Of a stretch of DNA of 64,000 bases, positions 2,294 through 16,575 are shown piece after piece. A model generated the notes under the pieces. It saw only the letters and a program-made list of their open reading frames with translations. It did not search any database and had not been told where the DNA came from. Position numbers and translations under genes: made by a program. Positions within the stretch are counted from its first letter, which is position 1. Each line of letters opens with the position of its first letter. Origin of the DNA: a virus; IMG/VR virus record IMGVR_UViG_3300027833_003138, positions 1-64,000 of that record. One strand, written 5' to 3'.

Positions 2294-3021
2294 TTTTTAT
2301 TTTGGATTTTTGTTATTACATATTTTAATATTTCACTTCTCATTATATCTTCTGCTCCAAAATGAAATGTATGAATTCCTCGCTCTTTACTTTCTTCGTC
2401 ATTGAATATAGAGTACATATCTGCAAAGCCACTTTTTCCATTGATATCGCTTTGCATTGGATCGCCGCAAATGATCAATTTACTGCCGCGACCAAGTCGG
2501 GTCATTAAAGTAGTAAGCTCTTTGAATGTGAAATTCTGAGATTCGTCCGCGATTACGATTTCGTTCATCCAACTGGCGCCGCGAAGGTAATTTACAGGCA
2601 TTCCTTTGATAATATCCTTTTCTCTTAAAATACTGGCTTGGCCAGGAACCAAAAGCTCGTCGAGTTTTTCGTTCATTGGCATCATATATGGATTAATCTT
2701 CTCGGCCATTTCTCCAGGAAGTGCGCCAAGGCTTTTTTCGCCACTTTCTGCGATTGTGCGTACATATGTAATGCCATTATCATTATTCATATTGTATAAT
2801 TGTAATGCTCCATATATTGCTATATAAGTTTTACTTGTGCCTGCAGGGCCGCTTATGAATACGATACTTGTTTCTTTATCAAATATTATTTTTAATAAAG
2901 CTAGTTGTTTGTCAGTTAGGCTTAGTTTTTTCAGCTTGACGTTTCTTTTGTGCAGAGAGGATGCGATCTTCTTGATCTCGTCCTCGTCTGTTATCTCGGG
3001 TTTTTTACGTTTTCGAGCCAT
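2290..3021 (-). CDS. phoH: PhoH family ATPase
   Basis: GPAGTSKT Walker A, LGALPG, YLRGAS, DESQN, TRLGRGSKLIICGDPMQSD; start reassigned to MARKRKK at 3021. Confidence 0.93.
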   Translation of the reverse strand: MARKRKKPEITDEDEIKKIASSLHKRNVKLKKLSLTDKQLALLKIIFDKETSIVFISGPAGTSKTYIAIYGALQLYNMNNDNGITYVRTIAESGEKSLGALPGEMAEKINPYMMPMNEKLDELLVPGQASILREKDIIKGMPVNYLRGASWMNEIVIADESQNFTFKELTTLMTRLGRGSKLIICGDPMQSDINGKSGFADMYSIFNDEESKERGIHTFHFGAEDIMRSEILKYVITKIQNKK

Positions 3022-3173
3022 TTGATTATATAAAAATACACTATTTTTTGATAGTGGCCAGATTTTTTTTGGATCGACGAATATGTTATAATTTATTAGA
3101 CTCATTTTCATATTGAAAAAAGGCACCCCCCGCACTTTGTGCACAATACAATTAAAAAATGAATTCATTTAAT

Positions 3174-3199
3174 GGGTAGGGTCTAAGGGGGTAGGGGGG
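3174..3199 (+). other. Potential G-quadruplex at the divergent late/early boundary
   Basis: GGG-TA-GGG-TCTAA-GGGGG-TA-GGGGGG in otherwise AT-rich DNA. Confidence 0.55.
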
Positions 3200-3320
3200 T
3201 ATAGTGCAATAAAATAATTGAATCTTTTTTCACTTTTTTTTTCGTTTTGCTTGACTTACTGACTCAATCTGATACTCTTTAAGTATAGTTAATAATAAAT
3301 AATACAATAAAATAAATAAT

Positions 3321-3536
3321 ATGAAATCATCACAACCTAAATTTGCCTCCAATCCAAACGCCGACATGGTGCTTCATGCTCTAACACTTGAAGAGTTGAA
3401 CGAGGAATTTACCCTCGCCCGTCTCTCATTAATGGATCTTGAAGAAGGATCCGAAGAACACGCAGAACGCGAAGCGTATCTTGAAACCGTTAACGATTTC
3501 AGAATCGAAGCAATCGGTATCTCCGAATTCGCTTAA
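3321..3536 (+). CDS. Hypothetical acidic early protein
   Basis: ORF downstream of a TTGACT...GATACT promoter and A/T-rich leader. Confidence 0.75.
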   Translation: MKSSQPKFASNPNADMVLHALTLEELNEEFTLARLSLMDLEEGSEEHAEREAYLETVNDFRIEAIGISEFA

Positions 3537-3566
3537 ACTTTAACACTAACATAATAAAATAATAAT

Positions 3567-3692
3567 ATGAATTACGATATACTTCTTTTAATCCTTCCTT
3601 GGCTGTTTCCTTTCTTCCTTATGTTTCGGTCTATCACTGACAAGCAAACAGATCTTTTTAAAAATAATAATAACGAAAATAAAGTAAAATAA
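3567..3692 (+). CDS. Small membrane peptide (41 aa)
   Basis: Manual: MNYDILLLILPWLFPFFLMFRSITDKQTDLFKNNNNENKVK*; same aataataatATG leader as neighbours. Confidence 0.6.
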   Translation: MNYDILLLILPWLFPFFLMFRSITDKQTDLFKNNNNENKVK

Positions 3693-3771
3693 AGTTTGCG
3701 TTTCCTTGGTTTATGTGTTACATTGTATGTATAAGATAAATTAAATAGTAACAATAAAATAATAAAATAAT

Positions 3772-3942
3772 ATGTATAAGAAAAATGATATCGTACTCGC
3801 AAAAGATAATAACACTTACCAAGTGATCGAAGAATTCACTAATGACCGATTAGGCAAGCAAGTTCTTTGCCGTCTTTATCGATCACAAAAGCGTGTTGCG
3901 TTCATGCCTTGGCAAATTAAAATCCATCCTTTATTCGCTTAA
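3772..3942 (+). CDS. Hypothetical protein (56 aa)
   Basis: Manual: MYKKNDIVLAKDNNTYQVIEEF...HPLFA*; own promoter and a leader shared with the 4911 gene. Confidence 0.65.
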   Translation: MYKKNDIVLAKDNNTYQVIEEFTNDRLGKQVLCRLYRSQKRVAFMPWQIKIHPLFA

Positions 3943-4000
3943 TGCTTGACACAATCATTTTATCTGCCATAATAGGATTAATAATAACAATAATAGAATC

Positions 4001-4309
4001 ATGCGAAAAGTAACACAACAAATTAAACAAGCCTTCAATCAAGGCACATCTCTAAAGGTAGGCAACACAAGGACAGACGGGCAAACCGTTTGGCTACATG
4101 GCAACGCCATTGTTAAGCGTGACCCTGACGGCTTGGTCAGATGGTCGCTTGCAGGATGGAACACGCCCACCACACGCGAACGCGTCAATGGTATAGCGAA
4201 TGCAGATGTTTGCCAATTCAAATTCGAGCCTGTACTAAATGGTCAAGTGATTGACTCATCCGATTGGTTCGCTTCGCCACCCAAGCTGCCCGACCTTCTA
4301 GTGTTCTAA
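4001..4309 (+). CDS. Conserved phage hypothetical protein
   Basis: MRKVT..IKQAF...VGNT...LHGNAI...GWNTPTTRERVNGI pattern; TTGACA promoter upstream. Confidence 0.8.
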   Translation: MRKVTQQIKQAFNQGTSLKVGNTRTDGQTVWLHGNAIVKRDPDGLVRWSLAGWNTPTTRERVNGIANADVCQFKFEPVLNGQVIDSSDWFASPPKLPDLLVF

Positions 4310-4310
4310 G

Positions 4311-4602
4311 CTCTCACATAGTTGACCTATACAACAGCCCACTATGTGGGCTTTTTTGTGCCCTATCCTGCCATAGCATTGTGCAGTCGGTCTTGTCGTA
4401 AGTTCTTGAATGCCAACAACTTAGGGCAAACTGCCCTCCGGAGTTTTCCGTAACTCGTTGAACGGCAACGACTTACAACAGAATTGATACAGATTCCGTG
4501 CCAACTTCGCAACAAAATCGCAACAGGATTGTGCAAAAACATAGTTGAAAGGTAAGTGAGAAAAAGCTTGTGTTTTGCCGTTTTGTCTGATACATTGTAT
4601 AT
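4311..4602 (+). repeat. Intergenic regulatory repeat unit 1 (terminator, paired palindromes, conserved core, promoter)
   Basis: Homologous to 6041-6246 and 7119-7409; 4465-4566 identical to 7273-7374. Confidence 0.93.
4336..4357 (+). terminator. Rho-independent terminator
   Basis: AGCCCAC-tat-GTGGGCT followed by a T-run. Confidence 0.8.
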
Positions 4603-4833
4603 ATGATTAAGAATAATAAAGTTGAAGAAATAAAACAAGAATTGAATTTGGATCTCGACCTTGGCTTGGCATTGGCTGAAGCTGAAGGCAACTTGAACCA
4701 CTTGGCTCGTGAGTCAAATTCATCCGATTGGCAAGGTACAATCACGCAAGGCATAACAATTCTTGACGCATTGAACGCAGTACAAAAAGCAAGAAAAGCT
4801 TTTCAGAAAATAAAGCAAAATAAATCAAAATAA
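4603..4833 (+). CDS. Hypothetical protein, paralog of 7938..8141
   Basis: Shared D(L/F)G.ALA..EG...L and TI...L.....RK.F..IK; leaderless promoter TTGTGT-17-TACATT-6-ATG. Confidence 0.8.
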   Translation: MIKNNKVEEIKQELNLDLDLGLALAEAEGNLNHLARESNSSDWQGTITQGITILDALNAVQKARKAFQKIKQNKSK

Positions 4834-4910
4834 AGTTTGCAATTACGCCCGAACTATGTTACCTTTAGGTATAGAATAAATTAAATAGTAACAATAAAAT
4901 AATAAATAAT

Positions 4911-5096
4911 ATGAATTCATCATCAATAAAATTCCGTATCAGAGAAACTGAAACAGACATCCGTAACGCTACCGATTCCTTAGAAATCGCCCGACTTGAG
5001 AAAGATCTCAAAGAGTGGAAGCTCCATTTACACAACGCTCAAATGATCGAGCTTGAGGAAAGAGTTGGTTTTAGATCAATGGAGCGAAACGCTTAA
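4911..5096 (+). CDS. Hypothetical coiled-coil protein
   Basis: ORF with promoter and A-rich leader. Confidence 0.7.
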   Translation: MNSSSIKFRIRETETDIRNATDSLEIARLEKDLKEWKLHLHNAQMIELEERVGFRSMERNA

Positions 5097-5116
5097 TCTT
5101 TAATAAATTAACTAAT

Positions 5117-5305
5117 ATGAATAAAATACAAGTAAGAATCCAAGAGTGGTCAACTCATTGGTCAGTAAAAATCTTCGATCAAGGCATCGACTCAAACGGC
5201 AATGATCGCCCAAGGGTTCGGACTGCATCAAGTCAATCGCATCTTGATAAGATCATGCGAGACGAAGGTCTCAATCAATTTCGCTTTAATGTCGTCTTTC
5301 AATAA
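5117..5305 (+). CDS. Hypothetical protein
   Basis: ORF in cassette A. Confidence 0.7.
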   Translation: MNKIQVRIQEWSTHWSVKIFDQGIDSNGNDRPRVRTASSQSHLDKIMRDEGLNQFRFNVVFQ

Positions 5306-5365
5306 TAAGAAAAAAAAAGTAAAATAAAGTTTGACTTTTAACCAAAACTAGATTAAATTGTATAT

Positions 5366-5638
5366 ATGATAAAGAATAAAACATTCGTAGCAAGCGTTCA
5401 TGTCTCTTCTCTCAATGGGGAAGCAATTTCCTTATGGAATAGTAATACCAAGTCGTACATCGACATAGACAAGACGCATCATGCGATCACTATACAAGCT
5501 GAAGACAAGCACGAAGTAAGGCGAAAAGTTGCTCGCATGATTCGCACGCTTCAACCAAAGTTGCAATTTCAAACAAGCATTCAACGCAAAGATGGCGATA
5601 ATGCTCAATACTACATCCAACAAATTTGGGAAAAATAA
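5366..5638 (+). CDS. Hypothetical protein
   Basis: TTGACT-17-TAAATT-6-ATG leaderless promoter. Confidence 0.75.
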   Translation: MIKNKTFVASVHVSSLNGEAISLWNSNTKSYIDIDKTHHAITIQAEDKHEVRRKVARMIRTLQPKLQFQTSIQRKDGDNAQYYIQQIWEK

Positions 5639-5686
5639 ATTATCTTTTTTCTTGCGTAAAACTTAAAAAACTGCTTTAATAATAAA

Positions 5687-5842
5687 ATGATAAATGTACA
5701 TCCAAACCCTAACTTTGCTAATTGGTTCAATGTTGTCTTTAATGGCAAATTAATTGATGGAGCAAAATCTCACGCTAAAGCCTTGCGAATCGCAAAAAGA
5801 TTAAGTGCTAAAACAAAAGCCCCGATTCTCTCAAGCAAATAA
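5687..5842 (+). CDS. Small basic protein (51 aa)
   Basis: Manual: MINVHPNPNFANWFNVVFNGKLIDGAKSHAKALRIAKRLSAKTKAPILSSK*; TTGCGT-17-TTTAAT-6-ATG. Confidence 0.7.
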   Translation: MINVHPNPNFANWFNVVFNGKLIDGAKSHAKALRIAKRLSAKTKAPILSSK

Positions 5843-5846
5843 AATT

Positions 5847-6032
5847 ATGAACGAAAAACAAAAATTGCAAAAAATAATTGACGATCACGCCGAGCCTGCA
5901 GAAAATGGCTCTATTCTATCAAGAATGTATGTTATCGCAGCACAAATGGAACTTGATAAGATAGCTCAAAATGAGCTTGCCGACTATGTAGCTTATACCC
6001 CACTGCCCGATCCTCTCATCTTAGTTGACTAA
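5847..6032 (+). CDS. Hypothetical protein, paralog of 8180..8347
   Basis: Shared L...I..H...A..G...S...V..AQM.LD.I; start reassigned to 5847. Confidence 0.75.
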   Translation: MNEKQKLQKIIDDHAEPAENGSILSRMYVIAAQMELDKIAQNELADYVAYTPLPDPLILVD

Positions 6033-6040
6033 TAAGTTTT

Positions 6041-6246
6041 CGTAAGTAACTGAATACCAACGACTTAGGGAAAAAATCCCTGGGCGGTTTTCCGTAACTC
6101 GTTGAACGGCAACGACTTACAACAGAATCGATACAGATTCCGTGCCAACTTCGCAACAAAATCGCAGTCGAATCGTGCAAAAAGATAGTTGAAAGGTAAG
6201 TGAGAAAAAGCTTGTGTCTTGCCGGCTTTTCCTTTATGTTGTATAT
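6041..6246 (+). repeat. Intergenic regulatory repeat unit 2 (lacks the terminator part)
   Basis: Paired palindromes at about 6042 and 6094, conserved core, promoter TTGTGT-17-TATGTT. Confidence 0.93.
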
Positions 6247-6426
6247 ATGGACAAAGGAATTACACTTCTCAAAAAAGTTAAAGCCGATATCTTCTTTCAT
6301 CAAGAAGTTATCAGAAACGAGAGCGATCCGGCAATTGTTGCAATCTCCAAAGACTTACTACGACAAAATCAAGATTGGCTTGCAGAATGGGATTTACAGG
6401 ATAAAGTTGCAATGCAAAATAACTAA
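6247..6426 (+). CDS. Hypothetical protein
   Basis: Start reassigned to MDKGITLL (leaderless ATG 6 nt after -10). Confidence 0.7.
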   Translation: MDKGITLLKKVKADIFFHQEVIRNESDPAIVAISKDLLRQNQDWLAEWDLQDKVAMQNN

Positions 6427-6503
6427 AAATAAAGCTTGACCTTTATAAAAAATACTATACTCTCTTACTTATAACATTAATAATAAATAACAAAATAAAT
6501 AAA

Positions 6504-7112
6504 ATGAAAATTGCTAAAACTCAAATGAATCGAATCTCTCAATTTGCAACAAACTCAAGCCCTCGCAGTAAAACAGGACATGGTAAAAGTTTGGAGATGT
6601 TCCTCGCTGATCACTTCGACTTTCCCGAATATGATCAATACAAGTCCAAGGTTGACTTTCCAAAAGAGATCGTTGCACAGGGAAATGTTCCATCTGATTG
6701 GGTTGCAGATTGGGAAGTAAAATACTACAACATTAAATCTTCTGTTATAATGCTTGGCGACCTTGAAAGAAAAATGCAATGCCTTAAAGATGGCTTGGTT
6801 ATAGTGATTGGGCTTTACGATGGAACGCCCGACAATCTTGTAGATATTAAATTTATCAAAATCAAAGCTGATAATTCTTTACTAAAACATTTTAACACTT
6901 GGAAGAAAGCCTCTGAATTCGTTAAAGACAGAGATAACACAATAGAAGAAACTCGCCAATTCGTCAAAAATATAAATGCAAAGATCAAAAGCAAATTCTT
7001 TGTGAGTAATACCTCCATGCAAAACAGATGGAGCACTTCAAAAGGAATAATGAGAGGCGAAGCTCGTCAAGTCTCTTTGTCTATCTCATCCAAGAACTTA
7101 ATGAAAATATAA
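6504..7112 (+). CDS. Putative PD-(D/E)XK restriction-endonuclease-like nuclease
   Basis: HGKSLE ... KVD ... WEVK ... MLGDLER spacing resembles the type II REase catalytic core. Confidence 0.5.
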   Translation: MKIAKTQMNRISQFATNSSPRSKTGHGKSLEMFLADHFDFPEYDQYKSKVDFPKEIVAQGNVPSDWVADWEVKYYNIKSSVIMLGDLERKMQCLKDGLVIVIGLYDGTPDNLVDIKFIKIKADNSLLKHFNTWKKASEFVKDRDNTIEETRQFVKNINAKIKSKFFVSNTSMQNRWSTSKGIMRGEARQVSLSISSKNLMKI

Positions 7113-7118
7113 CTTAAA

Positions 7119-7409
7119 CTCCCACATAGTTAACCTATGCAATAGCCCACTATGTGGGCTTTTTTGTGCCCTATCCTGCCGTAGGATTGTGCAGTCAGTT
7201 ATCTCGTAAGGTCTTGAACATCAACGACTTAGGGAAAAAATCCCTGGGCGGTTTTCCGCAACTCGTTGAATAGCAACGACTTACAACAGAATTGATACAG
7301 ATTCCGTGCCAACTTCGCAACAAAATCGCAACAGGATTGTGCAAAAACATAGTTGAAAGGTAAGTGAGAAAAAGTTTGCGTTTTGCTTGGTTATGCCTTA
7401 TGTTTAAGT
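7119..7409 (+). repeat. Intergenic regulatory repeat unit 3
   Basis: Full-length homolog of unit 1, including terminator 7144-7165. Confidence 0.93.
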
Positions 7410-7907
7410 ATGATTAAAAATAAAACAAAAGCTTTTGTCTTCGACTTTGATGATACTTTAGCATTCACAGATGCAAAGGTTCATGTCATGAGTGAACAAA
7501 ATGAATGCGTTGCAAGCTTAACTCCTCAAGGGTTTAATGACGCAAAGCTAAAAGATGGTCAATGGTTCGACTTCTCAGACTTTGACAAATCAAGTTTTAT
7601 TCTTAACGGAACACCAACAAAATTAATAGACTTGGCGAAAGATGTTTTCAACGAAGGTCATTCTGTTTTCATCTTAACGGCAAGAACAAGCTCTGCATCT
7701 TCTGCAATAGCTGAATTCTTGGGTCACAACTTCATAACTGCAAAAGAAATTCATTGCGTTGGATCTCAAGGCTCAGACATCGCAAAATCAAAAAGAAAAG
7801 TTTTACTATCAATAATTGAAAACTTCGATAAAATTTGGTTCTTCGATGATGACGAAAGAAATATTCAATTAGCAAAAGATTTACCACTTACTGCAAAAAA
7901 AGTTTGA
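7410..7907 (+). CDS. HAD-superfamily phosphatase-like protein
   Basis: FDFDDTL (motif I), LTAR (II), K, FFDDDERN (IV); start reassigned to MIKNK at 7410. Confidence 0.85.
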   Translation: MIKNKTKAFVFDFDDTLAFTDAKVHVMSEQNECVASLTPQGFNDAKLKDGQWFDFSDFDKSSFILNGTPTKLIDLAKDVFNEGHSVFILTARTSSASSAIAEFLGHNFITAKEIHCVGSQGSDIAKSKRKVLLSIIENFDKIWFFDDDERNIQLAKDLPLTAKKV

Positions 7908-7937
7908 CACAACCCATTAAATACATTAGATTAAGAT

Positions 7938-8141
7938 ATGATTAAAACAAAAGAACAACTCTGTAACGAAATCGATTTCGGTACTGCTCTAGCACAACTT
8001 GAAGGATCGATTGATTTTCTCAACTACATGGCACAAGAAAAATCAGATGCTCCTCGGACTCTAACTGAAAAAATGACTATCGAGGGAATGCTCGAACGCA
8101 TCAAAGAAATCCGTAAACTTTTTAAAGAAATTAAAAAATAA
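7938..8141 (+). CDS. Hypothetical protein, paralog of 4603..4833
   Basis: TTGACA-17-TAGATT-5-ATG; similarity to the 4603 protein. Confidence 0.8.
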   Translation: MIKTKEQLCNEIDFGTALAQLEGSIDFLNYMAQEKSDAPRTLTEKMTIEGMLERIKEIRKLFKEIKK

Positions 8142-8179
8142 GTTTGACACAACAACCTAAGACCTATAATATCAATACT

Positions 8180-8347
8180 ATGAATAAAATAAAAGAACTC
8201 ACCGATTTAATCGCAAACCACCAACCACAAGCAGACGCAGGACATACAGGCTCTAAGCAAATAGTCGTGAATGCTCAAATGCAACTTGACGAAATCGAAT
8301 CGAATGCAAAAGCCCAAATGCTTTTAATCTCACTTTTTGCTTGTTAA
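8180..8347 (+). CDS. Hypothetical protein, paralog of 5847..6032
   Basis: Start reassigned to MNKIKEL after a TTGACA promoter. Confidence 0.75.
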   Translation: MNKIKELTDLIANHQPQADAGHTGSKQIVVNAQMQLDEIESNAKAQMLLISLFAC

Positions 8348-8385
8348 GGCTTGACTCAATCAATTAAAACAACTAGAATACAATT

Positions 8386-8694
8386 ATGACAGAACTCGAA
8401 AGAATCGAACTAATACGCAACGCAGTTGCAAATAATAACGCACAAGTCTCAGCTTCTCTTTCTCTTCAGATCGAAGACTTGAAAGCTGAAAAGTTGGCTG
8501 AAGACTTAATCCTTGAGCATGGTTTGCTTGATGTATCAAAGCGAGAAATCACAGACGAGGTTTCAGAATTGGCATCTAGTCACGACAGGGCAGACGATGA
8601 AGAAGACTTCGATAATGATGAAAACTTGCGAGATATGCAAGCAGTTAGCCCATTAATGAGGGAAATCTTTGAAGACAATAATTCAATTGCATAA
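8386..8694 (+). CDS. Hypothetical acidic protein
   Basis: TTGACT-17-TAGAAT-6-ATG. Confidence 0.75.
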   Translation: MTELERIELIRNAVANNNAQVSASLSLQIEDLKAEKLAEDLILEHGLLDVSKREITDEVSELASSHDRADDEEDFDNDENLRDMQAVSPLMREIFEDNNSIA

Positions 8695-8841
8695 GTGGAT
8701 ATACTAACAATTATGGTCGTAAGTGGATTAATAGGATTAGTCAAAGCTTTAACGGAAAAAGAAGATTAATGATAATACTAGAAATAAGTTGCATAATAAT
8801 ATCACCGATTTTGTTTGTTGCGTTAATTCTTTAGGGCGATA

Positions 8842-8880
8842 GGTCAACCCGTGAGAGTTCGCGGGTTGACCATTCTTTTT
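8842..8880 (+). terminator. Strong hairpin terminator ending the rightward block
   Basis: GGTCAACCCG-n10-CGGGTTGACC then attcttttt. Confidence 0.8.
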
Positions 8881-8882
8881 CT

Positions 8883-9011
8883 CATAAAGTATTGATACTC
8901 AACGACTTAGGGCAAAAAGCCCAGGGAGTTTTTTCATAACTCGTTGATACTCAATCACTTAGGGAAAACTGCCTAGGGCTTTTTATAAAATGTTAATAAT
9001 CAACGACTTAT
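8883..9011. promoter_or_regulatory. Triple palindromic IHF-like site at the transcription convergence point
   Basis: Three copies, periods 52 and 49 bp; exact WATCAANNNNTTR at 8885-8897(-), 8937-8949(-), 8998-9010(+). Confidence 0.75.
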
Positions 9012-9271
9012 GTAATTATTGTACTATTCTATTATTTACTGTATTTATATTTGGCTTTTTTATATTTGGGGCCCGGAAAACTGTATTTGTATTTAACCTA
9101 TTTAACTTTTAAGTTTAGCTATTCTATTTATCAAGCCAATAGTAAAAGGCGAGTGAGTTATTGCTCTGTCAAGGTTTGATTCTAGATTTCGGATTGCATT
9201 GATGATGTAATCGAGGTTGCCAATGATTCCCATTGCTTTGCCGCTCTTTAATACTTGGTAAGTTTTTTCTT

Positions 9272-9502
9272 TCATAGTTCGTTAATTACTTCGGTGTTTA
9301 TCTCTTCAATATTCACAAGTGGATCATCCCATCTGACTCCGTCAAGTGTTTCTTCGTCTGACACGACCCTCTTAAAGGTTTCATAGTCTCCGCACTTCTT
9401 TGCGGTTGCATAATAATATTCATTGTTTTGAATCCATAGTGCTATGTTCCAAGTTTCTCGGTTGCTCCATCCGTTATAGCTCATATCTTTATTGTCTTGC
9501 AT
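9272..9502 (-). CDS. Conserved phage hypothetical protein (YNGWxNxETW family)
   Basis: YNGWSNRETWNIALWIQN motif. Confidence 0.8.
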   Translation of the reverse strand: MQDNKDMSYNGWSNRETWNIALWIQNNEYYYATAKKCGDYETFKRVVSDEETLDGVRWDDPLVNIEEINTEVINEL

Positions 9503-9505
9503 AGT

Positions 9506-9949
9506 TTAAAGGTCTTCGTGGTAAATGTAGATTGGATTGTCGTTATAGGTTAAATGTGCGTGCTTAACAAATGTATTGCTTTCAATGTTCTTTTTAAATG
9601 TTGAGTTGGAAATGAACACATCTGTTTGCTCGGTCTTCTTCTTGGCTTTAATAATTATTACGCAACCATCGTTGCTTTTGGTAATTAGATGTTTTTTTTC
9701 GTTCATTTAGTTGCGATAATGAGATGAGTCTTGCGATTCGGTTAGAGTTTCATAAGCGTGTGCTTTTTGTGCAATAGCTTTTAATGCTCCACCAATAACA
9801 TTCAACATTGAAAGCTGATCGTTGTCAAGCATATTCTTGTCGGTCATTGGTTCGATCATGTTGTCGTGAATGAATGCCATAACTAATTCGTTTGCTTCTA
9901 GCGAGTCGACATCTTGAACTTGCAAGTGGTTTGGGTCATTAAGATACAT
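9506..9949 (-). other. Two hypothetical CDSs (9506..9706, 9707..9949)
   Basis: Tightly packed ORFs in a leftward operon. Confidence 0.7.
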
Positions 9950-10064
9950 AGTTTAATTTTGTTTTGTGTTTTAGTTTCCTATCAAGAATTTTGTTTTTCA
10001 TCTTGAAAGGTCGAGCCTTAGTGAAAAGGATTTGATGTCTGAGCTTTATCTTTTTCGCTTTCAT
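9939..10064 (-). CDS. Small very basic protein (41 aa)
   Basis: Manual: MKAKKIKLRHQILFTKARPFKMKNKILDRKLKHKTKLNYVS*; TTGACT-16-CATACT-7-ATG. Confidence 0.65.
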   Translation of the reverse strand: MKAKKIKLRHQILFTKARPFKMKNKILDRKLKHKTKLNYVS

Positions 10065-10129
10065 AAGTAATAGTATGACAGAATTTTTTGTGAAGTCAAG
10101 TGTTTTTTTCTAGTGAATAATAAAATGAT

Positions 10130-10231
10130 ACCAAACACGGAGGGAGTCGAACCCATAAGAGGATAGTTAGGACTGCAATCCGCACCTCTCCTAATCACCA
10201 CTAATTTGCAGATTAGTTTGATCGTGTTGGT
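10130..10231 (-). ncRNA. tRNA-like small RNA (about 100 nt, non-canonical)
   Basis: Own promoter (TTGACT-16-CATACT); 5' ACCAACACG pairs with 3' CGTGTTTGGT; T-arm GGG-TTCGACT-CCC; two internal hairpins with TGCA loops. Confidence 0.6.
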
Positions 10232-10295
10232 AAGTATCAGTATGTCAGAATCTCAACCAAAGTCAACCCTTAAATGCAAAAAAACAAAAATAATT

Positions 10296-10374
10296 GTAAA
10301 CCGTTGCGACTCAATGACTTGCGCGAAATCGCCCAGGGCTTTTTGCCCTAACTAGTTCATAACCAAGCGTTTAT
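10296..10374. promoter_or_regulatory. Paired palindromic IHF-like element (degenerate)
   Basis: gtaaaccgttg..caatgacttgc plus a second copy 52 bp away; gcccagggc spacer. Confidence 0.65.
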
Positions 10375-10453
10375 AACATCTGCATAAATGCATAAAAAAA
10401 TGTATGCACTAAAGGTTAATAAAATTGATGTAATCAATAATGCTTTAATCATA

Positions 10454-10621
10454 TCAGTACCCTAACCATTCTAACACTTTTTGTGCATTATACTCTTCTT
10501 TGTCACCCATGTCTAAAATGAATTGGTGAATATCTTGGCAACCATGCTTTGAGAGTTCTTCAAACGCTCTTGCTTGGCTAATCATTAAATCTTCGGCTGA
10601 ATCGTAATATGCTTCACTCAT
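10454..10621 (-). CDS. Hypothetical protein (55 aa)
   Basis: Manual: MSEAYYDSAEDLMISQARAF...VLEWLGY*; overlaps the stop of the upstream gene. Confidence 0.65.
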   Translation of the reverse strand: MSEAYYDSAEDLMISQARAFEELSKHGCQDIHQFILDMGDKEEYNAQKVLEWLGY

Positions 10622-11361
10622 GAGTCTATCCCTTCTACTACAAATCCTGTTGCGTCTTTCTTTGCCATACCTTTCTCGATCAAGCCAACGACCACACCTT
10701 TCTTGTCAAGAAAACGCAAGTCAGTTTCATCACCATTGACGACCTCAAAACCTTTCCATGCCTTAGGTAATTGATTGCGAAACACAACGGCTACATTGCC
10801 ACCCATTAAAAGAACCATTTCGCATTTCTTGTCATTATTCTCTGAGCGAGAAAAAGTCAAATGATAATTAGAGGGAAATTTTGCCTCGCCCTTAATGAAA
10901 GGTTTGTCGAGAAAAGAACACATTCTTTTAAATGATTTAGTATAATCATAAAACTTAGTTTGGGGAAACTTATCAAAAATTGTTTGAGGCTTTTCTTCAT
11001 CAAAAAATACTGACTCCCACATGATGTCGCTTGTAAGATTAGGACGAAAGACAGCTTCCATACTTTTCTTTTGTGCCGACTTAATTGAGGAAGTAATTTC
11101 TTTCGATAGTTTTGCGAGAAAGTCAAATTGCTTTTCAAAGAACAACTTTGTTTTGTTGATGCGTGAATCTTGAACAGATCCCATTTGACCACGACCTGCC
11201 GTATTCAAGCAAGACATTGTGCAACCTTTAGAACGCCATTGGCAAGTTTCGTAGCCTGAAAGATTTGCTGGGGCAAGGTGAATGCCTTTTGTGATGTAAC
11301 CTAATTTCTCGCCTTTGAGAATCTTTTGGTTACCTGATGTGAGAAGTGTTGTTTTAATCAT
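10618..11361 (-). CDS. GP88-like phage protein (Cys-rich, radical-SAM-like fold)
   Basis: LAPA..SG...C...S.GC...CLNTAGRG, FYDYTK, NYHLTFS, DETDLRFLD, KG.AKKD..GFV. Confidence 0.8.
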   Translation of the reverse strand: MIKTTLLTSGNQKILKGEKLGYITKGIHLAPANLSGYETCQWRSKGCTMSCLNTAGRGQMGSVQDSRINKTKLFFEKQFDFLAKLSKEITSSIKSAQKKSMEAVFRPNLTSDIMWESVFFDEEKPQTIFDKFPQTKFYDYTKSFKRMCSFLDKPFIKGEAKFPSNYHLTFSRSENNDKKCEMVLLMGGNVAVVFRNQLPKAWKGFEVVNGDETDLRFLDKKGVVVGLIEKGMAKKDATGFVVEGIDS

Positions 11362-11611
11362 GTCTTAATTATGGTTGAATTAGTTGCTTCTGTCAAGCTT
11401 TTTAATAATGTTTTTTGCTTTTTCGATTCCTTTTTCTGTACCGAATTGTCCGAGCAATCTCTTGAAAGTTTCCCATGAAATAGTATTAGAGGGAAGTTCT
11501 TGAAATTGTTTCATTCTTTGCTTTGCTTGTTCGTCTTTCATAAGTATAATTATGACATCATATAGAGGTAAGTCAACCCTAAAATTAATAAAATTAAAAA
11601 AACTTTATGAC

Positions 11612-11690
11612 GTTACTCGTTAACTATCAACGACTTACGCAAAAAAGCCTAGGCCGGTTTTCCCTAACCTCTTGAACCTCAACGACTTAT
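11612..11690. promoter_or_regulatory. Paired palindromic IHF-like element
   Basis: caacgactta at 11628 and 11680 (52 bp); exact IHF consensus 11625-11637; spacer aaaaaagcctaggccggtttt. Confidence 0.75.
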
Positions 11691-11710
11691 GCAATAATAA
11701 ATGTGGGCAC

Positions 11711-11734
11711 AAAAAAGCCCCCCAATCGGGGGGC
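11711..11734 (-). terminator. Rho-independent terminator
   Basis: GCCCCCC-gatt-GGGGGGC then T6 on the minus strand. Confidence 0.85.
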
Positions 11735-11768
11735 AATCATTAATCTTTCCGCTACGCAGATTGACTAA

Positions 11769-12005
11769 TTAACCTAGACTCACTGACCTTTTAAAGGATT
11801 TATCTGCACAAGTCGCTCGAAGAACATGGCGACGATTGACTCGACGATTCGCTCCATTCATGTCCGAAAACATTACATGGCGAGCAGTAACGCTCTTGAC
11901 TTTTGCCGAGAAGACCTTGCGTTGCTCCCCTTGTTTAACTAGAAGAGAAACGAATCGTCCTTTGAGACTATCAACTACATTTTTGAGTTTTGCTTGATTT
12001 TTCAT
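11769..12005 (-). CDS. Hypothetical basic protein
   Basis: ORF co-transcribed with the DUF932-like gene. Confidence 0.75.
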   Translation of the reverse strand: MKNQAKLKNVVDSLKGRFVSLLVKQGEQRKVFSAKVKSVTARHVMFSDMNGANRRVNRRHVLRATCADKSFKRSVSLG

Positions 12006-12052
12006 AATTTTAATTTTTGTTAGGTTTGTGTTTGGTTTGTGATTAAGAATGA

Positions 12053-12790
12053 TTACTTTACTAGTGCGACTTCGGAGTCAAGAACACCATGCAATGCGAG
12101 AGAACGATTTGGTAAGGCATGAACTCCACCTTTAAGAACATGAGTGAAGCCGTTGTACAATGAGTGCATATTCCGAGGAGAAAAGTCATCATGTTCGGGT
12201 TTGTGCCATTGCTCAACTACATCAGCGATTTTGCCTTTGCTGATCGCACCATTTTGAAAAGCACGGATAACAAGGTCATGGGCTTGCTCGTTGCCGAGTT
12301 CGTACTCTTTGTACGCTTCGATGCGTTTCTCATCGCTTGCCCATGTCTCAGTCATCTTGCCGAGAGTGCGAGCGATAACTTGAGACAAGTCACTCAAAAT
12401 GTTTTTTGTGTGCCGTCTTGCAAGAGTCACTTCGTTTGTGAAAATAAGATTCGAGCAAACAAATGGAGCGTTACCCATGCACAAACCTGCTGGAAAGCAT
12501 TTGTCGTGCGAATTGCGAAGACCGAGAACTGTGCCACGATCATCAACATCAGAACCTGTGTTCTTGACATGGAAGAGACCGAAGTAACGCTGACCGAATC
12601 GGTGAAGAGAATGGTAAGTGTCTACAATTTCCCAACCATTTTCTTGGATTTGGTTTTGCACACGATCAACAAGGAACGCATGACCGATTGGTTGCCAAGA
12701 CTCAGTCTTTTCGGGAGTCTTTACGGACTTCACTTCGCTAAAGTCGATTCGTTTTGTGCCACATACGGAGAGATCAATTTTTTTATTCAT
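12053..12790 (-). CDS. DUF932-like phage/plasmid protein
   Basis: WQPIGH, LGLRNSHDK, FVCSNL, RRHT, LYNGFT motifs. Confidence 0.75.
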   Translation of the reverse strand: MNKKIDLSVCGTKRIDFSEVKSVKTPEKTESWQPIGHAFLVDRVQNQIQENGWEIVDTYHSLHRFGQRYFGLFHVKNTGSDVDDRGTVLGLRNSHDKCFPAGLCMGNAPFVCSNLIFTNEVTLARRHTKNILSDLSQVIARTLGKMTETWASDEKRIEAYKEYELGNEQAHDLVIRAFQNGAISKGKIADVVEQWHKPEHDDFSPRNMHSLYNGFTHVLKGGVHALPNRSLALHGVLDSEVALVK

Positions 12791-12990
12791 AGTTTTTTTA
12801 GTTTTGGTTTATCGCTTTGTAAGATTTAATTATACGAAAGTTTTTGGTTTTTGTCAAGCTTTTTTTTCTTCGATTAAGTTTTTTTTGTTTCGACTAATTT
12901 TTTTTAAGTTCAGTTATCGTCTTGATGTATACTAGTATGACAGAAAATGATGTCATGTCAACACTTTTTTTTCATAAAATTAAAATAGTT

Positions 12991-13069
12991 GTAAGTATAT
13001 GAATATCAATGACTTAGGAAAAACCGCCCAGGACTTTTTTGCGTAAGTCCTTGGTGGTAAGTGATTTAG
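12991..13069. promoter_or_regulatory. Paired palindromic IHF-like element adjoining the tRNA 3' end
   Basis: gtaagt starts at 12991 and 13043 (52 bp); exact IHF consensus 13004-13016. Confidence 0.75.
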
Positions 13070-13076
13070 GTAAGCT

Positions 13077-13153
13077 TGGTGGACCCGCTCGGGCTTGAAC
13101 CGAGGACCCTCCGATTATGAGTCGGACGCTCTAACCAACTGAGCTACGGGTCC
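13077..13153 (-). tRNA. tRNA with CAT anticodon, Ile2 (lysidine) type
   Basis: GGACCCGTAGCTCAGTTGGTTAGAGCGTCCGACTCATAATCGGA...GGTTCAAGCCC...GGGTCCACCA; resembles bacterial tRNA-Ile2 rather than fMet. Confidence 0.9.
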
Positions 13154-13161
13154 CAAGTTAA

Positions 13162-13737
13162 CTAAACTCTTTTTTCGAGCAAATAAAGCTCACTAAGGAG
13201 CAAATTATGTGCAAGTTTTTGAGAGAATAAACCTTTGCCTCCAAGCCCACGCATTTCTGCTTGAGCAAGAGCGTAACCCATGTTACGAATTTTAGTGCGA
13301 AGAGTTGCGATTCTTGTTGTATTCATTTTCTTATCCTTGGTTGTAGTGGTTGTATGCGTTGCACGCTTGATCTGCTGAGTCAAAACTAACTGCTATTAAA
13401 TCTCTTTGACTATATGGATGCCACGATGTTGGCGACTCCTCGAAATACAATTCCCATTGCTCGGAGTCTTCGTTAAAACTTGGAAGGTCAAGAGGTTTGC
13501 CTTCGCATACTGCTTCGATGTAGTTATTCATAATTATTTTAATCCCTCCATTTTGTTGAGAAGTTGATCGAGAACGGACTGCCGATTGCCTTTAAAACCA
13601 AATTCTGATTTCGCAATCGAATAGCAAGATTTGCCTCTCGACATCTTTAGTCCTCTCATTTCTAGCTTTATTCCTCTTGCGATAGTTCTTAATCGGAATG
13701 CGTTAATTTGTTGTGGTGTGTCTAGTATCATATTCAT
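13162..13737 (-). other. Three small hypothetical CDSs (13162..13326, 13331..13531, 13534..13737)
   Basis: Operon behind leaderless promoter TTGACT-16-CATACT-7-ATG at 13737. Confidence 0.7.
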
Positions 13738-13775
13738 AATGTTAAGTATGGCAGGTTTTTGGTGGAAGTCAAGCA

Positions 13776-14210
13776 TTAATACCAACAAGAGTAAAAAATT
13801 CTGTGTTTCTTTTTTAGTGCCTTGCGAGCATCCTTGACGAATTGCAAATCGCTTTCTTTGTACCAATAATCGTTATCGGAATGAGGTTCATCGTTTTCGT
13901 CAGTCCAAAAATAAGAATCAGAACCCCAAAAGAATCCATTTGATTCGGGAAGCTCGAAATTAAGAATCGCATCTTCAAGAGAATTAATATCTTCTTCCGT
14001 TAATTGCAAGGGAACGCAATTAAAAAGAACTTCGGCATCGTCATCGTCATCGTCACCATACTTGTCTTCGTTTGGGCAACCCTTACTTTCCCAAAGGTCT
14101 TGCATCCATCCTTGCAAGCGATTATGCTTTCGCCATTCTGCAATTTGAATGTCATTATCTGAGTTGCGTTTGCGTGGTGGTCGTGAGTATGCGTATTGAT
14201 CTAATCCCAT
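13776..14210 (-). CDS. Conserved phage protein (MGLDQY...WRK family)
   Basis: MGLDQY, WRKHNRLQGWM, GFFWGSD, C-terminal Y.CWY. Confidence 0.8.
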   Translation of the reverse strand: MGLDQYAYSRPPRKRNSDNDIQIAEWRKHNRLQGWMQDLWESKGCPNEDKYGDDDDDDAEVLFNCVPLQLTEEDINSLEDAILNFELPESNGFFWGSDSYFWTDENDEPHSDNDYWYKESDLQFVKDARKALKKKHRIFYSCWY

Positions 14211-14226
14211 AATTTTTTCCTTGTTG

Positions 14227-14460
14227 TTAGAGTTGTGCTGATTGAAAAGAAGACTCTATTCTAAGCTCATTCTGCAATGAGGTCAAGCTTAAAACGATAT
14301 CCTCCAAAACTTCTTCGGCTGATTGAAATGTACTTCCAAGTGGAAACTTTTCGGGATGACGCTCGTTCTGCTCCAAGCATACCTTGGACATTGGATCTGC
14401 GTATGCCATTTCTCCCCGGACGATGTCCATGATGGTTTGTCTTATCTTTGCTTGTGTCAT
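14227..14460 (-). CDS. Hypothetical protein
   Basis: ORF in operon. Confidence 0.7.
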   Translation of the reverse strand: MTQAKIRQTIMDIVRGEMAYADPMSKVCLEQNERHPEKFPLGSTFQSAEEVLEDIVLSLTSLQNELRIESSFQSAQL

Positions 14461-14608
14461 AATTACTTACTCCAATCTACTTCGTTAAGCTCAACTTGCC
14501 CACTTCCGAAAATCATCTCGAAAATTTTAATTAAATCCGTTGGAGATAAGTAGTTGAACTCATCTAAGATTTCTTTCTTTAACTGCGTTTTTGTCATTTG
14601 GTCTTCAT

Positions 14609-15007
14609 TCATAATACTGCTAATACTTGTTTGGGTTCTAGTCTTACGGCAATAGCATAGTCTACCATTTGTTCCGTGTCCTTGTCAACAAAATTCTCAT
14701 ACTTATATGGATTATAGGAAACAGGTCTTGCAGTGGGATGAGAATCTCTCCAATCGCCCATTTGCCAATTCTCTACATAGCCCTCGATTCCTGCGTGAAC
14801 ATTTTTACGCTGTTCTTTTAAAACTCTTTCTCGCCCACTTTTGCTAACCTTGAAAGTGCAACTATGCATTGCTAGTAATTTGGTATGAGCTTTAACTAAT
14901 CCGTCTTGCTTGATGCTCCAACATTTCTTGTGAAGATTCTTGTAAACAAAAACAGGACTACCAAAGTCAATCTTATATCTTTTTTCGTTAGGCTTTGTCT
15001 TGATCAT
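14609..15007 (-). CDS. Conserved phage hypothetical protein
   Basis: VYKNLHKKCWS, GRERVLKEQRKNVHA, YNPYK motifs; leaderless promoter. Confidence 0.8.
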   Translation of the reverse strand: MIKTKPNEKRYKIDFGSPVFVYKNLHKKCWSIKQDGLVKAHTKLLAMHSCTFKVSKSGRERVLKEQRKNVHAGIEGYVENWQMGDWRDSHPTARPVSYNPYKYENFVDKDTEQMVDYAIAVRLEPKQVLAVL

Positions 15008-15072
15008 AAATACAAGTATGACAGGTTTTTACCTCAAGTCAACCTTTTTCTTCATTTTTTTTCTAAAACATT

Positions 15073-15151
15073 GCAAGTCGTTGGTAGCCAATTAGTTATG
15101 AAAAAACGCCTAGGCGGATTTTACGCAACTCGTTGTTATTCAATAACTTAT
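15073..15151. promoter_or_regulatory. Paired palindromic IHF-like element
   Basis: gcaagtcgttg at 15073 and gcaactcgttg at 15125 (52 bp); spacer aaaaaacgcctaggcggatttt. Confidence 0.72.
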
Positions 15152-15335
15152 GTAATTTATGTCATTTTAATTTGATTATGTTTATTATTTTTCTTCTTAT
15201 ATTTGGCTCTTATATTTGTGTTATTTACTATTGATATTTGAACAAGATAAGTTTGTTATTTAGAAGTCGTCCCTTTCTTCTCTAATGAGTTGTATAAGGC
15301 CTGCGATTGCGCTCAAGATAATTATTGTTAACACT

Positions 15336-15911
15336 CTATGCCGTCTTGGAGTACTTCTTCCAAATCTCTAGATCAAGGTCAGTCACTGACTTTCCTAAGG
15401 TTCGAGCATGCATCTTGAATGCATTAGCGTAATAGTTGTAGATGCCGACGTTCGAAGGCGTGCTCTTTGGGGCGTCCTTATGCCCTTGGTCTCGAAGGAA
15501 CCTTAAGATATGTGTGTCGAGCATCGGCTCATCGAAGTCTTCGCGACTATGAGAAAGAAAGAACCTTGCCGTTTTAAGCCCGATACCAGCGACCTCTAAA
15601 AGTCTGCTAAGAGTAACCGTTTGAAGGTCTTGTATCTTGGACACAGCAACATAAGAATTGTATCTTTGCTTGTATGGACTAAGCTTTGCCCAATGCATGA
15701 TCTCTTGCAGCCGGCCCAATTCAATCAATTTTCTTATACAATTAAATGGTAATGCTTCTTTTGTTATGTTTTTTGCTCTCTCGATAAACACTTCTAATTT
15801 AGGTGCTTCGATTGAACTTTTCTTTCCCGCTACATTGATACCAAATAAAATAAATTCTTCTAATTGATATTGTGTTCTATTATAGTTTGTTACTTCTGCT
15901 GGATTAATCAT
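15336..15911 (-). CDS. HhH-type DNA glycosylase/lyase-like protein
   Basis: HhH GIGLKTARFFL, downstream LDTH, LDLEIW. Confidence 0.7.
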   Translation of the reverse strand: MINPAEVTNYNRTQYQLEEFILFGINVAGKKSSIEAPKLEVFIERAKNITKEALPFNCIRKLIELGRLQEIMHWAKLSPYKQRYNSYVAVSKIQDLQTVTLSRLLEVAGIGLKTARFFLSHSREDFDEPMLDTHILRFLRDQGHKDAPKSTPSNVGIYNYYANAFKMHARTLGKSVTDLDLEIWKKYSKTA

Positions 15912-15929
15912 ATGTTTTTTTATGTTAGG

Positions 15930-16184
15930 TTATTGTGCAATGTGAAATACTTCTCTAAGCTTACTCATTTCATCTGATGCGAAGAATACTTCTCTGCAAT
16001 AGTCAATGTTTTTTGATTCAATATTATTAATGAGTTTCACTGCTTGATGAACAGGAACTCGATCACGAGGCATGCCTCCCCATTTGATTACGACTTTCAT
16101 ATGAGGAAAGTTGTCGTTGATTTCAGCAAGTTGAGCTGAGTTGATGTAACCGTAGTTTGTGAGAATTTGTTTAATCGTTTCCAT
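15930..16184 (-). CDS. Hypothetical protein
   Basis: Start reassigned to METIKQ; TTGACA-16-CATACT-7-ATG. Confidence 0.7.
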   Translation of the reverse strand: METIKQILTNYGYINSAQLAEINDNFPHMKVVIKWGGMPRDRVPVHQAVKLINNIESKNIDYCREVFFASDEMSKLREVFHIAQ

Positions 16185-16221
16185 AATATCTAGTATGACA
16201 GATCTGTGGGTATTGTCAAAC

Positions 16222-16258
16222 AAAAAACCCGACCAAAGTAATTTACCTTGATCGGGCT
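16222..16258 (-). terminator. Terminator after the structured RNA
   Basis: GCCCGATCAAGGTAA...TTACTTTGGTCGGGT then T-run. Confidence 0.75.
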
Positions 16259-16282
16259 TAACATGAATAATAATAAATAAAA

Positions 16283-16469
16283 TGGTGTGGGGAAGGATTA
16301 CTGTATACCTTCGACTTTTCGGCGTGAACATCAGTTCATAGAGTACCTACTTCGCACCACAAACGAGACTTGGAATTGTCTCTAGCTCATCCGATTGGAC
16401 TCTGCTAATCTACCACAGAAAGTTTGCGTACCTTAGCTCGCTCACGACAAGCTTGCTCAGTCACCCACA
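16283..16469 (-). ncRNA. About 187-nt structured RNA with acceptor-like stem and encoded CCA end
   Basis: 5' TGTGGG pairs with 3' CCCACA-CCA; internal hairpins GAGAC/GTCTC, TGAAC/GTTCA, GAAGG/CCTTC; own promoter, boxA-like site and terminator; no credible ORF. Confidence 0.7.
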
Positions 16470-16504
16470 GGAGAAGTATATCTACCTCTCCAAAGTTTTT
16501 AAAA

Positions 16505-16516: not shown

Positions 16517-16575
16517 ATTATTTATTTTGATTAAGTTTGTTTCTTAATTATGTATCTATTATACTCTATTATTTG

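Follow-up and report, generated by a model that had tools for sequence, protein, structure and literature searches.

Between the early genes of an uncultured marine phage a short palindrome recurs, nearly always in pairs, which raises the question of what these repeats do. The window analysed is a stretch of 64,000 nucleotides; the full genome of the phage, G000, is 140,314 bp in length and 79% complete. The first-pass annotation proposed an architectural, IHF-like element, with recombination sites for cassette shuffling as one candidate role. The profile match, the lack of covariation and the register with early promoters described below point to an architectural element of this kind.

Anatomy and transcriptional setting

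The repeated unit has a 25-bp palindromic core. G000 contains 17 units, arranged as seven pairs and one triplet spanning 4399–15150, with a period of 52 bp in all of the pairs and of 49 bp for the third copy of the triplet. The elements are E1 (units 4399/4451; 4399–4475), E2 (6043/6095; 6043–6119), E3 (7207/7259; 7207–7283), the triplet E4 (8885/8937/8986; 8885–9010), E5 (10297/10349; 10297–10373), E6 (11613/11665; 11613–11689), E7 (12992/13044; 12992–13068) and E8 (15074/15126; 15074–15150). These pairs, the triplet and both periods had been annotated and were re-found: when the whole genome is ranked against the perfect palindrome, the top 16 matches are all element sites. The absence of copies after 15.2 kb was also confirmed, as 16 of the 17 units score 18–34 bits with a leave-one-out weight matrix and the maximum outside the region is 16.3 bits; a lone weak match at 28008 has no partner. 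The remaining unit, the second of the 10297 pair, scores only 13.3 and is identifiable chiefly from its position. Every copy is intergenic, as annotated, if short wrong-strand ORFs are ignored.

Neither pairing between the arms of a unit (0.748 versus 0.741 when shuffled) nor pairing of unit against unit (0.690 versus 0.702) shows covariation, which argues that the element is a double-stranded protein site. An RNA or single-stranded DNA hairpin function was rejected, as there are no compensatory base changes, despite E3 folding well. An Rfam search placed no family on the elements, and BLAST searches of the element region and the consensus twin against 50,697 phage records gave chance matches only. 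A literature search on the motif and on IHF sites in long terminal repeats, mostly outside subscription journals, found no description of the twin palindrome.

Seven of the eight elements lie upstream of a promoter, as had been claimed, each with one sigma70-type promoter on its transcription-distal side. In the left (plus-strand) arm the gap is 92 bp at E1 (promoter 4568–4596, plus strand, leaderless with an ATG 6 nt past the −10 box), at E2 (the lowest-scoring promoter) and at E3 (7376–7404). On the minus strand the gaps are 30 bp at E5 (−35 box at 10266), 36 bp at E6 (11576–11549), 30 bp at E7 (12961–12934) and 31 bp at E8 (15042–15015). An upstream intrinsic terminator is clear at E1 (4336–4360, plus strand), E3 (7144–7168, plus strand, identical in sequence to that before E1), E4 (8842–8871, plus strand, a strong terminator closing the left arm) and E6 (11734–11717, minus strand). 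At E7 a tRNA-Met(CAT) gene (13077–13153, minus strand) ends 8 bp from the element, and relatives have a terminator-like hairpin there instead; the search found no upstream terminator at E5 or E8 and no clear one at E2. The triplet does mark the convergence of the two transcription blocks, sitting between that last plus-strand terminator and the end of the minus block at 9102.

Scan-wide, a strict-threshold promoter was present at 199 of the 430 elements among the matches listed, on one side in all 199 and on both sides in none (shuffled flanks, 4%). The gap to the −35 box is periodic: 182 de-duplicated values give R = 0.28 at 10.5 bp (p = 5e-7), and taking a single value from each flank cluster (n = 105) gives R = 0.20 at 10.5 bp (p = 0.015) and 0.29 at 11 bp. 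The distance from the element to the −35 box is moderately helically phased; E6, with its gap of 36 bp, is half a turn out of phase. An element is absent from most promoters in the probable terminal repeat discussed below and from every early-type promoter beyond 15.2 kb, so early transcription as such does not need it.

An IHF-type profile and its candidate binder

The profile of 632 unique units (among the matches listed) has A at +4 (0.99) and a purine at +5, with T at +10 and +11 (0.99), a purine at +12 and W at the centre. This is the IHF consensus WATCARnnnnTTR (10.1101/382655) including its degeneracies, with both the invariant kink step and TTR present. The two conserved steps of the unit are separated by 9 bp, which is the kink spacing of IHF (10.1101/382655), and in IHF 6 bp separate the kink from the middle T of TTR (PMC5829579). 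We deduce that the kink would fall at the AA step, with the IHF pseudo-dyad on the palindrome axis; each unit would then be the IHF consensus mirrored about the pseudo-dyad of IHF itself. The unit is two-fold symmetric, whereas the canonical E. coli form is asymmetric, often with an upstream A-tract, and is read by an alpha/beta heterodimer. Exact matches to the consensus at five places in the block were confirmed (8885, 8937, 8998, 11625 and 13004), yet 16 more occur in the other ∼130 kb, so the enrichment in the block is only about fourfold.

G000 and 16 related records, seven of them at least 90% complete, yielded no PF00216 (DNABII) gene. The unit also occurs, mostly singly, in bacterial chromosomes (Fibrobacter, Bacteroidota and Verrucomicrobiota), and 11 of 123 such units lie at most 15 bp from the 3′ end of a tRNA or tmRNA. 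Each of five unit-bearing MAGs has a single gene for an IHF-like protein, in which Arg occupies the position of IHF-beta Arg46, a beta-specific residue (10.1101/2024.06.24.600358). Four of them also encode HU, and no IHF-alpha type was found in the five, which are incomplete. To our knowledge Bacteroidota are reported to be without IHF-beta, in which case the homodimer type would vary by phylum. Judged by its sequence, the unit is most likely a docking site for a bacterial DNA-bending protein of the IHF family.

Our guess at the host is Verrucomicrobiota; the sigma70-type promoters presumably speak against Bacteroidota. The phage encodes a RuvB-like protein, but an attempt at host assignment found its homologues to be almost all metagenomic, and the putative major tail protein had no match in the 50,697 phage records. 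Among MAG bins, paired elements turn up in five taxa unrelated to one another, which probably reflects misbinning of phage contigs.

Relatives, exchange between copies and read depth

Related aquatic phages bear the same pairs. Periods were taken only from a single-unit scan of IMG/VR, which includes overlapping and related contigs, as the pattern of the first scan was biased to 51–53 bp. In this unbiased scan 695 of the 735 units among the matches listed are paired; the period is nearly fixed within a genome and, among the same matches, lineage-specific (41–42, 48, 50–53 and 58 bp). The claim that 52 bp represents five turns in phase holds for this clade and fails elsewhere: pairs spaced at 48 or 58 bp are out of helical phase, so a single loop geometry is not universal, and a five-turn in-phase geometry was ruled out as a general rule. 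In the six genomes checked (G000, G001, G002, G003, G006 and G010) the elements are confined to one block of 10–12 kb, in genomes that range from 112 to 211 kb; in other lineages the elements are spaced 0.3 to 2.3 kb apart (among the matches listed).

A GP88-family gene (PF17338; 10618–11361, minus strand) is found in element-bearing loci of most period classes, which shows that the blocks are homologous; a DUF932 gene (12053–12790, minus strand) is likewise common to them. These and two other unknowns are the widest-spread block genes, and no conserved candidate regulator was found there. In a sister lineage, which has no IHF-type pairs, a similar GC core sits in a T-tract/A-tract frame; with the frame swapped and the core kept, the core may matter more than the palindromes. 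Both frames occur together in two assemblies. Each lineage has its own core consensus, and this is maintained within a genome, even in right-arm copies that have not been homogenised; across lineages the cores share GC richness only.

The left arm contains 272-nt terminator–element–promoter repeats. One spacer variant is found at E1 here, at E3 in a 96%-identical relative and at E2–E3 or E1–E3 in others, while the left flank stays orthologous, and gene conversion is seen among the left-arm copies. The right-arm elements have diverged from each other and occupy syntenic sites. Left-arm gene adjacencies across elements changed in 74% of comparisons versus 56% elsewhere, the pairs not being independent; in the right arm the figures are 11% and 29%. 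No inversion between the arms occurs in the clade members examined, arm polarity being kept. The annotation saw no recombinase in the window, and none was found beyond it, either of the tyrosine type (PF00589; G000 and 16 related records) or of the serine type (PF00239; G000 and nine related records). Right-arm synteny, the lack of inversions and the lack of a recombinase make site-specific recombination unlikely, and a role as recombinase-type sites for cassette shuffling is not supported. No element-to-element joint is present among the joints listed for four runs, taken from contigs, which drop rare forms. The joints 10284–11633 and 11363–10260 in run X15 were taken to reflect a strain without gene 11380–11541 rather than an element-to-element deletion. 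The split block of G007 was likewise discounted as evidence of rearrangement, as this genome carries a 4.5-kb identical duplicate and its assembly may be chimeric.

By read depth, 3250–19350 is probably a long direct terminal repeat that the assembly has collapsed, with a left edge at about 3.25–3.4 kb and a right edge somewhere from 19.35 to about 20.9 kb. In contig-level means for this one phage, depth in run X1 is 34–43.5 inside versus 20–24 at 868–3765 and 21.6 from 19349, and in run X2 it is 7–8 inside versus about 3 outside; runs X3 and X15 show a similar step. Some 16–17 kb of genome end is probably repeated, with a long terminal repeat as the simplest reading. The twofold step suggests fixed long repeats but may also reflect a headful mechanism; no head or packaging genes were recognised in the record, which is 79% complete. 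The break between contigs at 19347/19349 of run X1 was rejected as the exact repeat end, as it is probably a SNP bubble. Where the double-depth region begins on the left lies a G-tract motif (3174–3199, plus strand) that is conserved in clade relatives, and similar G-tracts precede the first element in G002 and G006; we infer a candidate genome-end or packaging signal.

Proposed role, known systems and alternatives

We hold it somewhat better than an even chance that these are terminator–promoter boundary elements bent by host IHF, placed in the part of a large lytic phage that is expressed first and repeated at the termini. The module order would be terminator, twin bend site, promoter. A host DNABII dimer, probably a homodimer of a single IHF-like subunit, would bind each 25-bp palindrome and read TTR on both arms, and two such dimers would kink the DNA on both sides of the GC-rich core. 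The promoter-side dimer would tend to a fixed helical face relative to RNA polymerase, with its centre near −78 in the right arm and, in the left arm, a further six turns out. It would probably boost the first promoter of each cassette, and the pair would set this promoter apart from the transcription unit that ends immediately before the element. Homologous recombination of the repeated left-arm modules would be a by-product, as with PeSLs. The phage probably uses a host protein in this way to shape and switch on its first-acting genes.

IHF-stimulated phage promoters, of which lambda pL is one, likewise have the site upstream of a sigma70 promoter, and the IHF sites of lambda attP (H′ and H1) and Mu Pe share the consensus and the 9-bp kink spacing of the elements. 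The lambda and Mu sites are asymmetric, and a promoter usually has just one of them, whereas those here have mirror symmetry, are rigidly paired and recur eight times. At Mu Pe, deletion of the IHF site lowers transcription (PMC3820752). The PeSLs of T4-type phages are also repeated intergenic terminators with a sigma70 promoter between small variable genes (PMC2839356, PMC4122927). Their copies exchange homologously, which holds here for the left arm only, right-arm copies not being exchange points, and recombination between PeSL modules yields mini-circles; a PeSL has no pair of protein sites separating its terminator from its promoter and no fixed period, in contrast to the invariant twin IHF-type site, and they lie in hyperplastic regions of circularly permuted genomes rather than in a probable long terminal repeat. 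The ‘PHIRE promoters’ of Stenotrophomonas phage DLP6 have the same 11-bp half-site paired before gene clusters (PMC5349666; KU682439.2), but in this gammaproteobacterium phage they are asymmetric direct repeats, 25–26 bp apart and placed before promoters, that are spread over 34–145 kb, with no palindromic unit, and were published as computational promoter motifs, not as IHF sites (PMC5349666). The left terminal repeat of T5 likewise holds small early genes, together with conserved non-coding repeats for which binding by host proteins has been proposed (10.1101/866236; AY543070), but lacks such a unit, and its pre-early genes diverge whereas those here converge. The stop signal of T5 forms a single cluster with DnaA-like boxes close to the repeat end (10.1101/866236), whereas the elements here are dispersed. 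DnaA-box matches number three, scattered over 17 kb without a paired cluster. BIME-1 (RIP) of E. coli has the order REP–IHF–REP. It and the BIME-2 gyrase sites (PMC6379681) resemble the elements in being repeated intergenic palindromic modules at transcription-unit ends, linked to IHF or gyrase. The anatomy of BIME-1 is the inverse, with GC-rich hairpin-forming palindromes flanking one IHF site rather than two IHF-type sites flanking a GC core; the elements here lack hairpin covariation.

The alternatives are taken in order of decreasing probability. A host-built nucleoprotein domain might fold the entering first 10–12 kb, pacing entry and licensing pre-early promoters, with an exchangeable bending frame (host protein or T/A tracts); we think this rather unlikely. 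Also unlikely is that the GC-rich core is an operator for a protein of the phage (or another one of the host) that controls the timing or shut-off of the pre-early cassettes, with the palindromes or T/A tracts bending the DNA only to present the core, or, as a variant, that a non-DNABII phage protein binds the palindromes themselves. An operator would suit the constancy of the core within a genome, its retention on the frame swap and the two assemblies with both frames, but only GC richness is common across lineages and the block holds no conserved candidate regulator (G000 being 79% complete). Host DNABII dimers could instead load on and compact the first-entering 10–12 kb and ratchet or pause the genome as in the two-step transfer of T5, which depends on A1/A2. 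Such staged injection, raised in the first-pass annotation, gains some weight from the placement of the block in a probable long terminal repeat, with the elements confined to its left ∼12 kb and a block size, in genomes of 112–211 kb, near the 10.2 kb of the T5 repeat. It is nevertheless doubtful, as the promoter register and the placement after terminators indicate transcription, the element spacing varies in other lineages (0.3–2.3 kb among the matches listed), and the T5 repeat has no such unit and a compact stop cluster rather than dispersed modules (10.1101/866236).

That the elements are kept mainly as PeSL-like homologous-recombination boundaries for gain and loss of early-gene cassettes would fit the left-arm repeats, the moving spacer variant, the raised left-arm adjacency change and the RuvB-like protein. 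We consider it improbable, given the diverged, syntenic right-arm elements with their lower adjacency change and the lack of element-to-element joints among those listed for the four runs (contigs drop rare forms); homology alone, moreover, needs no IHF profile, fixed period or phasing. Strong gyrase or topoisomerase loading sites, draining supercoils between tandem and convergent units, would suit the GC-rich centre with bendable flanks found at unit 3′ ends and the triplet at the convergence, and the gyrase motif is symmetric and 130 bp long with phased GC (PMC6379681). Here the GC periodicity stops at the units, and E. coli gyrase sites correlate negatively with IHF-occupied sites (PMC6379681), so that this explanation is very improbable. 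Least credible, and largely refuted, are att/res-type targets at which a site-specific recombinase excises or inverts cassettes. The units are palindromic and in bacteria single copies flank tRNA 3′ ends, where integrative elements insert, but no PF00589 protein was found in 17 records and no PF00239 protein in ten (host-encoded enzymes aside), the arms are not inverted in the clade members examined, the conserved bases are the IHF determinants and the centre is 3 bp rather than a 6–8 bp crossover spacer.

IHF-like specificity is listed as unknown for Acidobacteria and Bacteroidetes (10.1101/2024.06.24.600358); if the boundary-element reading is right, the element would provide a natural consensus for the single-subunit IHF-like proteins found outside Proteobacteria, which are uncharacterised. 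The exchange of one frame for another around a similar GC core amounts to a natural experiment on which part matters. The paired motif may also mark terminal repeats in metagenomic assemblies, if the double depth holds in more genomes. For the phages themselves, the boundary-element reading, if right, would mean that widespread aquatic viruses of 110–210 kb depend on a host architectural protein to organise their first-acting genes.

Twin palindromes in the source record and in other viruses

The source record (G000) is a virus contig of 140,314 bp, 79% complete, and its sequence is present in marine runs. A scan of the whole record for a perfect 11-3-11 palindrome placed all 16 best sites at 4399-15150. 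The units are grouped, as the first-pass annotation had it, into seven pairs with a period (unit-to-unit distance) of 52 bp and one triplet (52 bp, then 49 bp to the third copy); its element coordinates and its five exact matches to the IHF consensus also hold. In leave-one-out scoring, 16 of the 17 units reach 18-34 bits, with at most 16.3 bits outside the element region; the weak unit is the second of its pair, at 10349. Elsewhere in the record, 65976-66929 and 124654-125256 (loci L049 and L052) hold a RuvB-like ATPase and a weakly sigma-like regulator, and long, mostly unannotated gene runs resembling glycosyltransferases or other sugar-modifying enzymes occupy about 43-63 kb and 109-138 kb.

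Searching IMG/VR with the pair pattern gave 48 stretches, and an unbiased single-unit pattern gave at least 120. Among the matches listed for the single-unit scan, 695 of 735 units are paired. The period is nearly constant within a genome and varies by lineage (41-42, 48, 50, 51-53 or 58 bp among the matches listed), that of 50 bp being found at no fewer than 63 loci in the single-unit scan; the spacers are GC-rich (0.64-0.93) and in part palindromic. Genes for GP88 and DUF932 recur in most period classes, which shows that the element blocks are homologous. Five related aquatic phage records (G001, G002, G003, G006 and G010) carry every copy inside one block of 10-12 kb; three others (G004, G005 and G009) have only a few scattered single units.

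BLAST against 50,697 phage records returned chance matches only, with no palindromic twin in cultured phages, and a literature search (the motif; IHF sites in long terminal repeats) found no published description of it. The element is not a canonical IHF site, an att/res site or a T5 stop signal. The Stenotrophomonas phage DLP6 has an identical half-site, arranged there as asymmetric direct pairs before promoters. Its published paired 'phage promoters', direct repeats 25-26 bp apart (for example 45312 and 45337 in KU682439.2), appear to be IHF-consensus boxes; they adjoin terminators and sigma70-type promoters. Shorter, half-degenerate tandem arrays of the half-site in viral contigs, with periods of 25 bp (L242 and L249) and 28-29 bp (L005, L020, L029, L040 and L042), are possibly of the DLP6 type.

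The unit and its possible binder

On each side of a central W, in mirror image, the unit profile has A, T, C, A and a purine, then four less conserved positions, then T, T and a purine, which is the consensus of IHF, WATCARnnnnTTR. The kinks that IHF puts into DNA fall at two steps separated by 9 bp (10.1101/382655), and the middle T of TTR is 6 bp away from the nearer of them (PMC5829579). This distance would put a kink at the AA step and the pseudo-dyad of the protein on W; by our own deduction, a palindrome is most plausibly a single symmetrised IHF site and not a pair of overlapping sites. The palindrome arms do not covary, and the unit therefore acts as double-stranded DNA.

Searches of G000 and of 16 related records turned up no DNABII gene. 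Units also occur in bacterial chromosomes, mostly singly. By record title, 119 bacterial loci include, in approximate numbers, 45 from Fibrobacter, 46 from Bacteroidota, 15 from Verrucomicrobiota and Lentisphaeria and ten from Proteobacteria; 11 of 123 bacterial loci adjoin tRNA or tmRNA ends. Five unit-bearing MAGs carry one IHF-like gene each, with Arg at the position of IHF-beta Arg46, and no alpha-type IHF partner was found in the five. A single gene of this type without an alpha-type partner would fit a homodimer reading both palindrome arms, a lead that comes from few, incomplete genomes.

Early-gene setting and probable terminal repeat

Small plus-strand genes occupy 3321 to about 8770, and small minus-strand genes extend leftward to 9102 from about 19.6 kb. 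Along the direction of transcription, the module starts with a terminator (or the end of a tRNA), followed by the twin element, the promoter and the gene. Many small early genes are each preceded by a sigma70-type promoter whose -10 box is 5-7 nt ahead of the ATG; scan-wide, this spacing is found at 137 of 311 element-linked promoters among the matches listed. Because the ATG follows so closely, many of the early genes at 3300-19600 probably have leaderless messages. Immediately behind the promoter of the right-arm element E5 is a tRNA-like non-coding segment (10125-10233, minus strand) with a closing stem and a T-loop-like motif (fold z -1.9), which neither ARAGORN nor Rfam calls. An AT-rich short motif, TATATTTG, occurs in two copies to the right of both the triplet E4 (9040-9070) and the right-arm element E8 (15175-15215), and is possibly a site for the phage sigma-like factor or another protein.

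Contig depth in a possible source run is 20-24 left of 3765, 34-43.5 between 3765 and 19349 and 21.6 right of 19349, and a similar step was seen in three further studies. This depth profile is most simply explained if the assembly collapsed a long direct terminal repeat of about 16-17.5 kb, whose edges are bracketed and not exact. A conserved G-tract lies at its left edge, and all of the elements fall within its left 12 kb. The probable repeat also contains a manA RNA motif (16282-16491, minus strand; RF01745, E 1e-16), and just beyond its left edge, beside phoH, is a subtilase-family protease gene (1121-2293, minus strand) with a 12-bp Pro/Glu/Lys tandem repeat.

Recombination, possible core binding and a proposed role in initiation

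The first-pass annotation had also proposed recombination sites for cassette shuffling. This proposal was not upheld: no integrase or resolvase was found in G000 and the related records searched, and arm polarity was never seen inverted in the clade members examined. Right-arm elements hold their position even in the distant records G001 and G011, and gene adjacencies spanning them change less than other adjacencies. In the left arm, gene content is variable in the intervals separating the elements as well as at the elements themselves, and one spacer variant relocates among direct copies, which shows gene conversion. The elements behave similarly to PeSL, with an added IHF-type site pair; PeSL-like exchange in the left arm is real, and it does not explain the conserved element geometry. 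A 41-bp leader repeat lies at 3726-3766 and 4866-4906, and a low-depth contig from sequencing run X1 links 4912 back to 3756, possibly a circle or tandem duplication made at this repeat and not at an element.

At a homologous boundary in the related record G007, one copy is a twin and the other has a T-tract/A-tract frame with a similar GC core. A sister lineage with the same early genes has eleven T/A-framed cores in 14 kb, and no IHF-type pair was found in it; its boundary elements (in loci L318, L319, L315 and L297) consist of a T-tract, a 21-bp GC core and an A-tract, some in tandem at a period of 35. Both frame kinds occur together in a second, independent assembly. Since the frame is swapped around a similar core, what is constant across lineages is the GC core between bend-type sequences. 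Retention of the core while the bending frame differs also speaks for an operator bound by a phage-encoded or other host protein, which we consider unlikely; that the elements are gyrase or topoisomerase loading sites finds little support and is highly improbable.

A role in transcription initiation is favoured, because promoters flank the elements on one side only and their gaps to the -35 box are phased. These gaps cluster at about 20, 30-31, 38-41, 59-60, 69-72, 82, 92 and 102, with significant, moderate helical periodicity, and in the window they are 92, 92, 92, 30, 36, 30 and 31. IHF acts in initiation at the Mu Pe promoter (PMC3820752), and the elements may act comparably; the GC core, together with the second unit, may insulate the promoter from the transcription unit ending just upstream.
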